Source: Escherichia coli (GTDB lineage Bacteria > Pseudomonadota > Gammaproteobacteria > Enterobacterales > Enterobacteriaceae). From it: a stretch of 64,000 bases of DNA. Below the pieces are notes generated by a model that saw only the letters and a list, made by a program, of their open reading frames with translations, searched no databases and was not told the origin of the DNA. Shown one piece after another: positions 18,901 to 21,933 of this stretch (positions within the stretch are counted from its first letter, which is position 1; each line of letters begins with the position of its first letter). A program made the position numbers and the translations under genes. The stretch lies in the NCBI RefSeq assembly GCF_013122565.1, contig NZ_CP053258.1, one strand, 5' to 3'.

Positions 18901-19697
18901 ATACCCATCTGGCGCTGCACAAAGAGGACGAGAAGATTCGCTTTCGCGATATTCAGGCGCAGCCACGTAAAATTATCTCCAGCCCCACATGGTCCGGTCT
19001 GGAAAGCGATCACGTTTCCTATAACGCGGGATACACCAACGTTCATGAGTTAATTCCGTGGCGCACGCTGTCGGGACGCCAGCAGCTCTATCAGGATCAT
19101 CCGTGGATGCGTGCTTTTGGTGAAAGCCTGGTGGCTTATCGCCCGCCTATCGACACCCGTAGCGTCAGTGAAATGCGCCAGATACCGCCAAACGGCTTTC
19201 CGGAAAAAGCACTTAACTTCCTGACGCCGCACCAGAAATGGGGCATTCACTCTACCTACAGTGAAAACCTGCTAATGCTGACGCTCTCTCGCGGTGGACC
19301 GATTGTCTGGATCAGCGAAACCGATGCCCGTGAACTGACCATTGTCGATAACGACTGGGTGGAAGTGTTTAACGCCAACGGCGCGCTGACGGCCCGCGCG
19401 GTGGTCAGCCAACGTGTACCGCCGGGTATGACCATGATGTATCACGCCCAGGAACGCATTATGAATATTCCTGGTTCGGAAGTAACTGGCATGCGCGGCG
19501 GCATTCATAACTCGGTTACCCGCGTTTGCCCGAAACCAACGCATATGATTGGCGGTTACGCGCAGCTGGCCTGGGGCTTTAACTACTACGGCACCGTCGG
19601 TTCGAACCGCGACGAATTCATCATGATCCGCAAGATGAAGAACGTTAACTGGCTGGATGATGAAGGTCGCGATCAGGTACAGGAGGCGAAAAAATGA
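15957..19697 (+). CDS. narZ: Respiratory nitrate reductase 2 alpha subunit (1246 aa)
   Basis: Track ORF 15834..19697; real start at MSKLLDRFRYFKQKGETFADGHGQ with GGAGCAGGAG SD; NarG-family N-terminus HGVNCTGSCSWKIYVKNG. Confidence 0.95.
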   Translation: MSKLLDRFRYFKQKGETFADGHGQVMHSNRDWEDSYRQRWQFDKIVRSTHGVNCTGSCSWKIYVKNGLVTWEIQQTDYPRTRPDLPNHEPRGCPRGASYSWYLYSANRLKYPLIRKRLIELWREALKQHSDPVLAWASIMNDPQKCLSYKQVRGRGGFIRSNWQELNQLIAAANVWTIKTYGPDRVAGFSPIPAMSMVSYAAGTRYLSLLGGTCLSFYDWYCDLPPASPMTWGEQTDVPESADWYNSSYIIAWGSNVPQTRTPDAHFFTEVRYKGTKTIAITPDYSEVAKLCDQWLAPKQGTDSALAMAMGHVILKEFHLDNPSDYFINYCRRYSDMPMLVMLEPRDDGSYVPGRMIRASDLVDGLGESNNPQWKTVAVNTAGELVVPNGSIGFRWGEKGKWNLESIAAGTETELSLTLLGQHDAVAGVAFPYFGGIENPHFRSVKHNPVLVRQLPVKNLTLADGSTCPVVSVYDLVLANYGLDRGLEDENSAKDYAEIKPYTPAWGEQITGVPRQYIETIAREFADTAHKTHGRSMIILGAGINHWYHMDMNYRGMINMLIFCGCVGQSGGGWAHYVGQEKLRPQTGWLPLAFALDWNRPPRQMNSTSFFYNHSSQWRYEKVSAQELLSPLADASKYSGHLIDFNVRAERMGWLPSAPQLGRNPLGIKAEADKAGLSPTEFTAQALKSGDLRMACEQPDSGSNHPRNLFVWRSNLLGSSGKGHEYMQKYLLGTESGIQGEELGASDGIKPEEVEWQTAAIEGKLDLLVTLDFRMSSTCLFSDIVLPTATWYEKDDMNTSDMHPFIHPLSAAVDPAWESRSDWEIYKGIAKAFSQVCVGHLGKETDVVLQPLLHDSPAELSQPCEVLDWRKGECDLIPGKTAPNIVAVERDYPATYERFTSLGPLMDKLGNGGKGISWNTQDEIDFLGKLNYTKRDGPAQGRPLIDTAIDASEVILALAPETNGHVAVKAWQALGEITGREHTHLALHKEDEKIRFRDIQAQPRKIISSPTWSGLESDHVSYNAGYTNVHELIPWRTLSGRQQLYQDHPWMRAFGESLVAYRPPIDTRSVSEMRQIPPNGFPEKALNFLTPHQKWGIHSTYSENLLMLTLSRGGPIVWISETDARELTIVDNDWVEVFNANGALTARAVVSQRVPPGMTMMYHAQERIMNIPGSEVTGMRGGIHNSVTRVCPKPTHMIGGYAQLAWGFNYYGTVGSNRDEFIMIRKMKNVNWLDDEGRDQVQEAKK

Positions 19698-21238
19698 AAA
19701 TCCGTTCGCAAGTCGGCATGGTGCTTAATCTCGATAAATGTATCGGCTGCCATACCTGTTCGGTGACCTGTAAAAACGTCTGGACCGGACGCGAAGGCAT
19801 GGAGTACGCATGGTTTAACAACGTCGAAACCAAACCGGGCATTGGTTATCCGAAAAACTGGGAAGATCAGGAAGAGTGGCAAGGCGGCTGGGTCCGCGAT
19901 GTGAATGGCAATATACGCCCGCGTCTGGGCAGCAAGATGGGTGTAATAACCAAAATCTTCGCCAACCCGGTGGTGCCGCAGATTGATGATTACTACGAAC
20001 CTTTCACCTTCGACTACGAACATTTGCATAGCGCACCGGAAGGCAAACATATCCCTACTGCGCGCCCGCGTTCACTGATTGACGGCAAACGGATGGACAA
20101 AGTGATCTGGGGACCAAACTGGGAAGAACTGCTGGGCGGCGAATTTGAAAAACGCGCCCGCGACCGCAACTTCGAGGCCATGCAAAAGGAGATGTACGGG
20201 CAGTTTGAAAACACGTTCATGATGTACCTGCCGCGCCTGTGCGAACACTGCCTCAATCCCAGCTGCGTGGCGACCTGCCCAAGCGGCGCTATCTACAAAC
20301 GCGAAGAAGACGGCATTGTGCTGATTGATCAGGATAAATGCCGTGGCTGGCGTTTGTGCATTAGCGGTTGTCCGTACAAAAAAATCTACTTCAACTGGAA
20401 AAGCGGCAAGTCAGAAAAATGTATCTTCTGTTATCCGCGAATTGAGTCAGGCCAACCAACCGTATGCTCAGAAACCTGCGTGGGTCGCATCCGGTATCTG
20501 GGCGTGCTGCTTTACGACGCCGACCGCATTGAGGAAGCGGCAAGCACCGAGCGCGAAGTTGACCTCTATGAGCGCCAGTGCGAAGTGTTCCTCGATCCAC
20601 ACGATCCCTCAGTGATCGAGGAAGCCCTGAAACAAGGTATTCCACAAAATGTGATTGACGCTGCCCAGCGTTCGCCAGTCTACAAAATGGCGATGGACTG
20701 GAAACTGGCACTACCGTTGCACCCTGAATACCGCACCCTGCCGATGGTCTGGTACGTTCCTCCGCTGTCGCCGATTCAGTCCTACGCCGATGCGGGCGGT
20801 TTGCCGAAAAGCGAAGGCGTGCTGCCCGCTATCGAAAGCCTGCGTATTCCGGTGCAATATCTCGCCAATATGTTGAGTGCCGGCGATACCGGTCCGGTAC
20901 TGCGGGCGCTGAAACGGATGATGGCGATGCGCCACTATATGCGTTCACAAACCGTGGAAGGCGTTACTGATACTCGAGCCATCGACGAAGTCGGCCTGAG
21001 CGTCGTCCAGGTCGAAGAGATGTATCGCTATCTCGCCATTGCCAACTATGAAGATCGTTTTGTCATCCCGACCAGCCATCGGGAAATGGCGGGCGATGCC
21101 TTCGCTGAACGCAATGGCTGCGGTTTTACCTTTGGCGACGGTTGCCATGGCTCGGACAGCAAATTCAACCTGTTCAACAGTAGCCGTATCGATGCCATCA
21201 ACATCACCGAAGTGCGCGACAAAGCGGAGGGCGAATAA
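19694..21238 (+). CDS. narY: Respiratory nitrate reductase 2 beta subunit, Fe-S (514 aa)
   Basis: Track ORF 514 aa; ATG overlaps narZ stop (ATGA); CIGCHTCSVTC and CEHCLNPSCVATCP clusters. Confidence 0.95.
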   Translation: MKIRSQVGMVLNLDKCIGCHTCSVTCKNVWTGREGMEYAWFNNVETKPGIGYPKNWEDQEEWQGGWVRDVNGNIRPRLGSKMGVITKIFANPVVPQIDDYYEPFTFDYEHLHSAPEGKHIPTARPRSLIDGKRMDKVIWGPNWEELLGGEFEKRARDRNFEAMQKEMYGQFENTFMMYLPRLCEHCLNPSCVATCPSGAIYKREEDGIVLIDQDKCRGWRLCISGCPYKKIYFNWKSGKSEKCIFCYPRIESGQPTVCSETCVGRIRYLGVLLYDADRIEEAASTEREVDLYERQCEVFLDPHDPSVIEEALKQGIPQNVIDAAQRSPVYKMAMDWKLALPLHPEYRTLPMVWYVPPLSPIQSYADAGGLPKSEGVLPAIESLRIPVQYLANMLSAGDTGPVLRALKRMMAMRHYMRSQTVEGVTDTRAIDEVGLSVVQVEEMYRYLAIANYEDRFVIPTSHREMAGDAFAERNGCGFTFGDGCHGSDSKFNLFNSSRIDAINITEVRDKAEGE

Positions 21239-21933
21239 TGCAGATCCTCAAAGTGATCGGCCTGTTGATGGAGTATCCGGACGAGCTGTTGTGGGAATGC
21301 AAGGAGGACGCTCTGGCGTTGATCCGCCGCGACGCGCCGATGCTTACGGATTTCACCCGCAACCTGCTTAACGCGCCGCTGCTGGATAAACAGGCCGAAT
21401 GGTGCGAAGTGTTTGACCGCGGGCGCACCACGTCGCTGCTGCTGTTCGAACATGTTCATGCCGAGTCCCGCGATCGCGGCCAGGCAATGGTGGACCTGCT
21501 GGCGGAGTATGAAAAGGTCGGCCTGCAGCTGGATTGTCGAGAACTGCCCGATTATCTACCGCTGTATCTGGAGTATTTAAGCGTACTGCCTGACGATCAG
21601 GCGAAAGAAGGATTACTCAATGTTGCGCCGATCCTCACCCTGCTTGGCGGTCGCTTAAAACAACGTGGAGCTCCGTGGTATTCGTTGTTTGACGCCCTGC
21701 TGCAACTGGCAGGAAGCTCCCTTTCAAGTGACAGCGTCACAAAACAAGTGAATAGCGAGGAGCGCGATGACACCCGCCAGGCGCTGGATGCGGTGTGGGA
21801 AGAGGAACAGGTGAAGTTTATTGAAGATAACGCCACGGCGTGTGACAGCTCGCCGCTTAATCAATATCAGCGACGCTTTAGCCAGGATGTCGCGCCGCAA
21901 TATGTCGACATCAGTGCGGGAGGTGGGAAATGA
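21238..21933 (+). CDS. narW: Nitrate reductase 2 assembly chaperone (231 aa)
   Basis: Track ORF 231 aa; start overlaps narY stop; NarJ-like. Confidence 0.9.

Follow-up and report, generated by a model that had tools for sequence, protein, structure and literature searches.

Stop/start overlaps at the internal gene junctions of the narZYWV operon in Escherichia coli

The narZYWV genes and their junctions

In the window, a stretch of 64,000 nucleotides of E. coli DNA (NZ_CP053258.1), the four genes of the second E. coli-type respiratory nitrate reductase follow one another on one strand in the order alpha subunit, beta subunit, chaperone and gamma subunit, with narU, encoding a NarK-type transporter, upstream (Table 1). 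All four proteins match the NCBIfam narG, narH, NarW and narI equivalogs essentially over their full length and well above cut-off. The narZ product scores 2333.8 bits with TIGR01580 (cut-off 1084), NarY 978.3 bits with TIGR01660 (cut-off 524; residues 1-493 on profile positions 1-491), NarW 510 bits with NF011628 (cut-off 410; 1-231 of 231 covered) and NarV 426.2 bits with TIGR00351 (cut-off 105.6). Over 10 kb the region shares 96.8% identity with K-12 narU-narV, and the name narZ is annotated for this gene in both PT62 and K-12. In K-12, 81 nt separate the end of narU from narZ (PMC10666635 supplement table). Judged from the sequence, the assignment of the locus as a narGHJI-type respiratory nitrate reductase operon, encoding the NarZYWV isoenzyme, is supported. 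Expression of narZYWV belongs to stationary phase, when RpoS is active.

At each internal junction the start codon of one gene overlaps the stop codon of the gene before it. The original prediction had paired the narY ATG with the narZ TGA, the narW ATG with the narY TAA and the narV ATG with the narW TGA, and this is exact to the base in both the junction letters and the ORF tables. The genes are co-directional and their distances of -4, -1 and -4 nt fall within the range of about -8 to +6 nt expected of co-directional genes that form a termination-reinitiation coupled pair. The same -4/-1/-4 geometry is found in E. coli K-12 and in the annotation of strain PT62, and among 5426 complete E. 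coli genomes, 4317 contain the 61-mer of the narZ/narY junction, 5387 that of narY/narW and 5311 that of narW/narV.

As a control for chance, the 53 gene ends that could be mapped across the window were searched for an ATG in -4 or -1 register with the stop codon, which was present at seven. Five of these ATGs start real conserved genes and have a Shine-Dalgarno-like motif before them, whereas the remaining pair, found behind tehB and ydcK, start ORFs of two codons that lack such a motif. About 4% of stops thus carry the bare motif by chance. Three consecutive junctions, each starting a conserved ORF of 226-514 codons, are not chance.

Further close junctions occur elsewhere in the window. Of those predicted to show the same pattern, tehA/tehB and the 8-nt fdnH/fdnI overlap are both present on the minus strand; the 11-nt overlap given as ydcV/ydcU is real, but the order is reversed, ydcU being the upstream gene. 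The mnaT/ydcZ overlap had not been listed, and neither had ydcT/ydcU, which abut at 0 nt (TGAATG).

Table 1. Genes, junctions and Shine-Dalgarno motifs of narZYWV, and other overlaps in the window.
Feature	Position	Strand	Description and basis
narZ	15957..19697	+	Alpha subunit of nitrate reductase Z, 1246 aa; heads the overlapping series as its first cistron; TIGR01580
narY	19694..21238	+	Beta subunit, 514 aa; TIGR01660; PDB 1q16_B
narW	21238..21933	+	NarJ-type molybdenum-cofactor assembly chaperone, 231 aa; NF011628; K-12 NarJ alignment
narV	21930..22610	+	Gamma subunit, 226 aa, a haem b anchor in the membrane; TIGR00351; PDB 1q16_C
narZ/narY overlap, ATGA	19694-19697	+	-4; narY ATG 19694-96, narZ TGA 19695-97; direct reading
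narY/narW overlap, TAATG	21236-21240	+	-1; narY TAA 21236-38, narW ATG 21238-40; direct reading
narW/narV overlap, ATGA	21930-21933	+	-4; narV ATG 21930-32, narW TGA 21931-33; direct reading
narY Shine-Dalgarno, AGGAGG	19681..19686	+	In narZ codons Q-E-A; duplex with 16S 3' end, -10.3 kcal/mol
narW Shine-Dalgarno, GGAGGG	21226..21231	+	In narY codons A-E-G; -10.0 kcal/mol
narV Shine-Dalgarno, GGGAGGTG	21918..21925	+	In narW codons, C-terminal G-G-G; -11.6 kcal/mol
fdnH/fdnI overlap, 8 nt, ATGAGTAA	4997-5004	-	ORF table, direct reading
mnaT/ydcZ overlap, ATGA	37675-37678	+	-4
ydcU/ydcV overlap, 11 nt	41234-41244	-	ORF table, direct reading
tehA/tehB overlap, ATGA	52695-52698	-	-4; ORF table, direct reading, K-12 table in PMC10666635 supplement

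Start codons and Shine-Dalgarno motifs

The ATGs of narY, narW and narV are each the first possible in their ORF, with no in-frame start codon upstream. Each has a Shine-Dalgarno motif that sits in the last 3-5 codons of the preceding gene. The predicted duplexes are all stronger than that of the leading narZ start (-6.9 kcal/mol) and lie beyond the value of -8.4 used as threshold for a strong motif (PMC6728339). Between duplex and ATG, 4-6 nt remain unpaired, and the core GGAGG is 5-7 nt away; the narY motif, with a 7-nt A-rich spacer, is identical in K-12.

Homology reaches to the very N-termini. Residues 1-506 of NarY align to 1-506 of solved NarH (PDB 1q16_B), residues 1-31 being identical, and NarV 2-225 aligns to NarI 1-224 (PDB 1q16_C). 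NarW is 55% identical to K-12 NarJ and colinear with it from residue 4. The overlaps had been taken to support the chosen starts, which holds: first-possible ATGs, strong embedded Shine-Dalgarno motifs 5-7 nt upstream, and family and structure matches from residue 1 or 2 fix the narY, narW and narV starts with high confidence. The value of the overlaps lies chiefly in this gain in annotation quality.

Junction distances in other nar operons and RNA structure

We compared the junctions with those of nar operons carried on plasmids, eight in all, from alpha-, beta- and gamma-proteobacteria. Six of these have -4 at the alpha/beta junction, and every beta/chaperone or chaperone/gamma distance falls in the range from -4 to +17 nt. 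Overall, 23 of the 24 foreign junctions are within that range, although start annotation may itself be biased in favour of overlap; the exception is Moraxella, with an alpha/beta gap of 298 nt. The P. aeruginosa and Ralstonia operons have gaps of +5 to +17 nt, so the enzyme does not need the overlap. Across prokaryotes, median distances of -1 nt have been reported for NarG>NarH (n=366), NarH>NarJ (n=353) and NarJ>NarI (PMC10666635).

When 105-nt segments at the three junctions were folded, no structure significantly exceeded shuffled sequences in stability. The z-scores were +1.58 for narZ/narY, where 195 of 200 shuffles were the more structured, -0.83 for narY/narW and -0.76 for narW/narV. 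An Rfam scan of the whole window returned no match in the nar region. In a wider sequence context, we also calculated an opening cost, i.e., the predicted energy to open positions -20 to +15, for 54 starts across the window; their median was 11.5. With 21.1 kcal/mol, narV ranks first among them, whereas narY (14.3 kcal/mol) and narW (11.5 kcal/mol) are unremarkable against the median. Opening cost was higher at closely spaced downstream genes (median 14.8 vs 10.5, Mann-Whitney p=0.0026), but the composition of coding regions may be all that lies behind the raised values of internal starts. Predicted structure hints at start-site occlusion for narV only. Structure melting was dropped as a demonstrated nar mechanism, because the 105-nt folds are no stabler than shuffles and opening energy singles out one start; for narV, the predicted energies keep it as a possibility.

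Coupled or independent translation

The overlaps probably mark where the cistrons truly begin and end in a single polycistronic message, in which translation of narY, narW and narV is expected to follow that of the preceding gene. Such a message would encode the NarZ-NarY-NarV nitrate reductase together with its assembly chaperone NarW. With each start overlapping a stop and a Shine-Dalgarno motif embedded just upstream, a ribosome ending the upstream cistron would halt right at the following initiation region, where it may clear local RNA structure, after which the ribosome or its 30S subunit could re-initiate in place, held by the Shine-Dalgarno motif; alternatively, the site may be left open to a fresh 30S subunit. 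By analogy with other E. coli pairs, translation of each downstream gene would then track that of its predecessor, giving matched subunit output with partners synthesised side by side.

Experiments on other genes bear on both the proposal and the route. Of five native E. coli pairs at -4 put to the test, four were coupled, bioBF being the one that was not (PMC6728339), and coupling in E. coli collapses at a spacing of about 20 nt (PMC6728339, PMC10666635). The route of coupling is disputed, the candidates being re-initiation and de novo initiation once a ribosome has unfolded the site. Genome-wide, coupling did not change on RRF depletion, a result that speaks against re-initiation as the principal route (PMC7538156). 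A literature search found no published test of coupling in any nar gene pair. The original prediction read the overlaps as indicating translational coupling; the geometry fits coupling but does not prove it, since strong Shine-Dalgarno motifs would also allow independent initiation.

There would be no overlap to explain if the starts were mis-assigned and true initiation lay further downstream, e.g., at NarY Met9 (19718) or NarW Met11 (21268), and in-frame ATG or GTG codons are indeed present 5-20 codons after each of the three starts. We regard this as very improbable and reject it on the homology from residue 1: NarY shares its first 31 residues with NarH, NarV aligns from its residue 2, and NarW is covered by its profile from end to end and is colinear with NarJ almost from the start. 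Moreover, the strong Shine-Dalgarno motifs precede the overlapping ATGs and not the alternatives, and the beta-subunit N-terminus M-K-[IV]-R is kept in 8/8 other operons. The likelihood is close to negligible that narZ/narY is instead a -1 frameshift site, at which P-site Lys-tRNA on GCG AAA AAA UGA would slip one base backwards while the stop codon awaits decoding, so that reading ran on into ATG AAA to give a low-level NarZ-NarY (alpha-beta) fusion. A six-A run (19689-19694) does lie right before the narZ stop, and relative to narZ, narY is read in the -1 frame, which holds for every ATGA junction. This run, however, shrinks to A4 in narG and A3 in Pantoea and gives way to GC-rich sequence in alpha- and beta-proteobacteria, and this lack of conservation makes slippage there very unlikely; furthermore, no significant or stimulatory downstream structure is predicted, and NarG and NarH are separate chains in solved structures. 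A Shine-Dalgarno motif 5 nt upstream of a shift codon favours +1 and not -1 shifts (prfB, dnaX), and that before the narZ shift codon, at only 5 nt, has the wrong spacing for a -1 shift.

A further alternative accepts the boundaries as real but has free 30S subunits starting each cistron independently, the overlaps being a by-product of genome compaction and of the drift and replacement of stop and start codons, without making downstream translation meaningfully dependent on upstream translation. We consider it possible but unlikely. It agrees with the strength and optimal spacing of the Shine-Dalgarno motifs, with the open, A-rich narY initiation region and with local structures that do not exceed shuffles. 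The geometry, too, is not conserved, -1 and -4 being swapped in narGHJI and gaps in other species ranging from +1 to +17 nt. Simulation work reportedly puts the -4/-1 distance peaks down partly to codon composition, which likewise counts for independent initiation, as do the bioBF precedent and the RRF-depletion profiling, which favours de novo initiation. On the other hand, nar distances stay between -4 and +17 across three proteobacterial classes, save for the Moraxella gap, and short distances are 4.5-fold enriched for E. coli complex subunits. The opening cost of narV and the coupling of most tested -4 pairs also speak against independence. Some interplay is unavoidable, given that the next start is physically covered by the ribosome that terminates there.

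Comparison with known systems

Stop/start overlap is the commonest way in which bacterial operon genes abut, and the narZYWV case is real, ordinary and already known. It provides a clean textbook example of gene packing for a heteromeric complex and raises no new question; the debate on re-initiation versus de novo initiation is a general one that the nar genes do not address especially well.

The closest parallels with coupling data are hyfHI, astDB and ydbH/ynbE, along with menDH (Huber et al. 2019, PMC6728339), which are -4 pairs and, like the narZYWV genes, co-directional within one operon. For these pairs coupling was shown with premature-stop and Shine-Dalgarno mutants, whereas for narZYWV the likeness is one of sequence. 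The trpB-trpA overlap (Das and Yanofsky 1989, as cited in PMC6728339) is the classic case resembling the narZYWV junctions. All of these have in common with narZYWV an overlap of the ATGA or TGATG type and a Shine-Dalgarno motif in the upstream 3' end. In atpHA, coupling by structure melting (Rex et al. 1994, as related in PMC7538156 and PMC12548453) likewise involves a downstream start within coding RNA that the upstream ribosome traverses. The nar junctions differ in that they are not significantly structured beyond shuffles and that the opening costs of narY and narW are ordinary.

The nearest relative is narGHJI, encoding E. coli nitrate reductase A, which has the same order of alpha, beta, chaperone and gamma genes. 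Its three junctions are also stop/start overlaps with Shine-Dalgarno motifs inside the upstream gene, and its alpha/beta junction shares with narZ/narY the ATGA, the conserved surroundings ...caggtacaggag... and a downstream protein that begins M-K-I-R-S. The geometry is -4/-4/-1 in narGHJI and -4/-1/-4 in narZYWV; a one-codon shift exchanges the -1 and -4 junctions, NarV having an extra Ile2 relative to NarI. The internal Shine-Dalgarno motifs of narGHJI are weaker (-7.4, -5.8 and -9.5 kcal/mol).

The K-12 overlaps and the cross-species medians were already tabulated by Huber et al. (2023, PMC10666635). Their catalogue gives -4 for narZ/narY, -1 for narY/narW and -4 for narW/narV, as well as -4 for tehA/tehB, -8 for fdnH/fdnI, -11 for ydcU/ydcV and -4 for mnaT/ydcZ. 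The window does not differ from it at any of these junctions and shows the catalogued geometry again in a strain that diverges slightly.

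Gene junctions and starts

Direct inspection of the junctions, the check proposed with the original prediction, confirmed its coordinates for the stop/start overlaps through narZYWV, and the overlaps it had claimed at tehA/tehB, fdnH/fdnI and ydcU/ydcV exist when read on the minus strand. Its list lacked mnaT/ydcZ and ydcT/ydcU. Because the latter is gapless, the junctions of the ydcSTUV operon run +17, 0 and -11, followed by +21 to patD (nt from stop to start, negative values being overlaps).

Junctions, reading frames and Shine-Dalgarno motifs in the window
Feature	Sequence or form	Position	Strand	Remarks
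narZ/narY junction	ATGA	19694-19697	+	narY ATG 19694-96, narZ TGA 19695-97; direct reading
narY/narW junction	TAATG	21236-21240	+	narY TAA 21236-38, narW ATG 21238-40; direct reading
narW/narV junction	ATGA	21930-21933	+	narV ATG, narW TGA; direct reading
narY ORF		19694..21238	+	mechanical ORF list
narW ORF		21238..21933	+	mechanical ORF list
narV ORF		21930..22610	+	mechanical ORF list
narY Shine-Dalgarno	AGGAGG	19681-86	+	within NarZ Q-E-A codons; -10.3 kcal/mol
narW Shine-Dalgarno	GGAGGG	21226-31	+	within NarY A-E-G codons; -10.0 kcal/mol
narV Shine-Dalgarno	GGGAGGTG	21918-25	+	within NarW C-terminal G-G-G codons; -11.6 kcal/mol
tehA/tehB	ATGA	52695-52698	-	
fdnH/fdnI	8-nt overlap	4997-5004	-	
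ydcU/ydcV	11-nt overlap	41234-41244	-	
mnaT/ydcZ	ATGA (-4)	37675-37678	+	K-12 tabulated distance equal
ydcT/ydcU	TGAATG, 0 nt between	42173-42178	-	

All four proteins scored far over the cut-offs of the NCBIfam equivalogs narG, narH, NarW-type chaperone and narI, essentially at full length. NarY aligned with the solved NarH chain (1q16_B) over residues 1-506 of both, the initial 31 residues being identical, NarI 1-224 aligned with NarV 2-225, and K-12 NarJ was colinear with NarW from residue 4 (55% identity). No in-frame start codon occurs 5' of the narY, narW or narV ATG back to the preceding stop. With profile and structure matches near residue 1 and no earlier in-frame start, the argument that the overlaps support the chosen starts is sound, and the starts of these three genes are well supported. 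Mis-assignment, with the true starts further downstream, is highly unlikely and was dismissed. Even less probable is a NarZ-NarY fusion made by slippage into the -1 frame at the A6 run that precedes the narZ stop: this run lacks conservation, the predicted folds contain no stimulatory structure, and solved structures show NarG and NarH as distinct chains.

Background frequency of the overlaps

As a control, the 53 gene ends mapped in the window were scored for an ATG in the -4 or -1 register with the stop. Seven had one, and five of these are real junctions (narZ, narY, narW, tehA and mnaT). The other two, ATGA at the stops of tehB (52105-52108, minus strand) and ydcK (54788-54791, plus strand), open 2-codon ORFs (MTR-stop and MNR-stop); neither ATG has a Shine-Dalgarno motif and both are chance controls. 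About 4% of stops would thus carry the bare motif by chance. Three consecutive nar junctions, each with a Shine-Dalgarno motif and a conserved gene of 226-514 codons, are beyond chance. The window as a whole is ordinary, since 7 of about 41 co-directional neighbour pairs in the syntenic PT62 annotation lie within -8 to +6 nt (hand count), close to the 24% of pairs reported genome-wide for K-12.

Shine-Dalgarno motifs

Motif strength was computed as the duplex energy with the 16S 3' end, and the narY, narW and narV motifs are all strong. Duplexes were weaker at the leading narZ start (-6.9 kcal/mol) and at the internal starts of the paralogous narGHJI operon (-7.4, -5.8 and -9.5 kcal/mol). The 30 nt 5' of the narY, narW and narV starts show no differences from K-12. 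The NarJ tail ...TGGQH likewise carries GGAGG in Gly-Gly codons. Because this tail and those of the upstream proteins (QEA, AEG, GGG) encode such motifs, the Shine-Dalgarno requirement may constrain these C-termini.

Translational coupling

At such overlaps, a terminating ribosome necessarily occupies the next start. The original prediction took the narZYWV overlaps to indicate translational coupling, a reading that is reasonable but unproven: junction geometry and Shine-Dalgarno motifs are established, whereas coupling is inferred. Two-reporter assays detected coupling in four of five native E. coli -4 pairs (PMC6728339), and coupling dropped steeply at about 20 nt spacing (PMC6728339, PMC10666635). 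Short distances are 4.5-fold enriched among subunits of complexes.

Independent initiation, with the overlaps neutral, is a serious alternative, though we consider it somewhat unlikely. The fifth -4 pair, bioBF, used de novo initiation (PMC6728339). Ribosome profiling under RRF depletion found coupling unaffected, overlapping pairs included, and its authors prefer de novo initiation following structure melting (PMC7538156).

Predicted folds at the three nar junctions showed no excess structure over shuffled controls, and the narZ/narY junction was unusually open (z = +1.58). The predicted energy to open positions -20 to +15, with ±100 nt of context, was highest at narV (21.1 kcal/mol), first of 54 starts (median 11.5); narY had 14.3 and narW 11.5. 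Closely spaced downstream genes had higher opening costs than other starts (14.8 vs 10.5, p = 0.0026); this may reflect coding-region composition only.

Our preferred reading is that downstream translation probably depends to some extent on upstream translation. Such dependence is likeliest for narV, and narY is the least certain case; its route could be either re-initiation or fresh 30S binding at a transiently cleared site.

Other features of the window

Identity to K-12 across narU-narV is just 96.8%. Among 5426 complete E. coli genomes, the best match reaches at most 97.7% (15000-23000) and 98.5% (39000-47000) identity, and the source seems to be an Escherichia/Shigella lineage that lacks a close representative among them. 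About 25 matches to the narZYWV region (15000-23000) in the E. coli collection sit on plasmids, and 36 plasmids in PLSDB encode NarW at 95-99% identity, a band with E. coli and E. fergusonii matches; this shows that plasmids have acquired the 'chromosomal' cluster by mobilisation.

The yddG-narU interval (10314-14159, plus strand) holds two long ORFs (421 and 417 aa) beside an intact one of 366 aa that is porin-like. The 417-aa ORF is the counterpart of a PT62 leucine-rich-repeat protein gene; at the 421-aa ORF, PT62 has LRR fragments broken by IS1. In K-12, yddK and the pseudogene yddJ occupy the corresponding interval. A SECIS element in fdnG (Rfam RF01989, 84 bits; 8301-8359, minus strand) accounts for the apparent division of the gene into two ORFs (5894..8305 and 8354..8941), which the selenocysteine TGA separates. 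The sok antitoxin RNA adjoining hokB (62034-62185) and the RydC sRNA (62745-62808), both on the plus strand, exceed Rfam gathering thresholds.

Conservation of junction geometry

The -4/-1/-4 arrangement of narZYWV is annotated in both PT62 (PGAP) and the K-12 record. Among the 5426 genomes, the 61-nt junction sequences were found in 4317 (narZ/narY), 5387 (narY/narW) and 5311 (narW/narV).

We searched plasmids with NarW by tblastn and inspected eight nar operons (Pantoea, Pseudomonas, Paracoccus, Moraxella, Methylovirgula, Tistrella, Caballeronia and Ralstonia). Six of them join the alpha and beta genes by ATGA; the distance at this junction is +11 nt in P. aeruginosa and +298 nt in Moraxella. 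Distances span -1 to +17 nt between beta and chaperone genes and -4 to +12 nt between chaperone and gamma genes. On the Pantoea piersonii plasmid (L004, 7187-7192), narI is annotated from CTG with a -4 overlap. The ATG 3 nt downstream, giving a TGATG (-1) junction, looks more plausible as the start, a case of annotation choice swaying overlap statistics.

Whereas narZYWV has -4/-1/-4, narGHJI has -4/-4/-1. NarV (21930-21935) has one added residue, Ile2, relative to NarI (6850-6855 of L002, the record bearing narI), and NarW and NarJ changed reciprocally; the -1 and -4 junctions were thus exchanged between the paralogous operons. Overlap is retained in both, its exact form shifted by one codon. 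The plasmid-operon ranges agree with the medians of Huber et al. 2023 (PMC10666635): -1 for NarG>NarH (quartiles -4/+12, n=366), -1 for NarH>NarJ (quartiles -4/+2, n=353) and -1 for NarJ>NarI. The K-12 pairs named in the original prediction are tabulated with equal distances in that study's supplement. The observation itself has been published before, and the overlaps are a standard, already catalogued trait of narZYWV and of bacterial operons generally.
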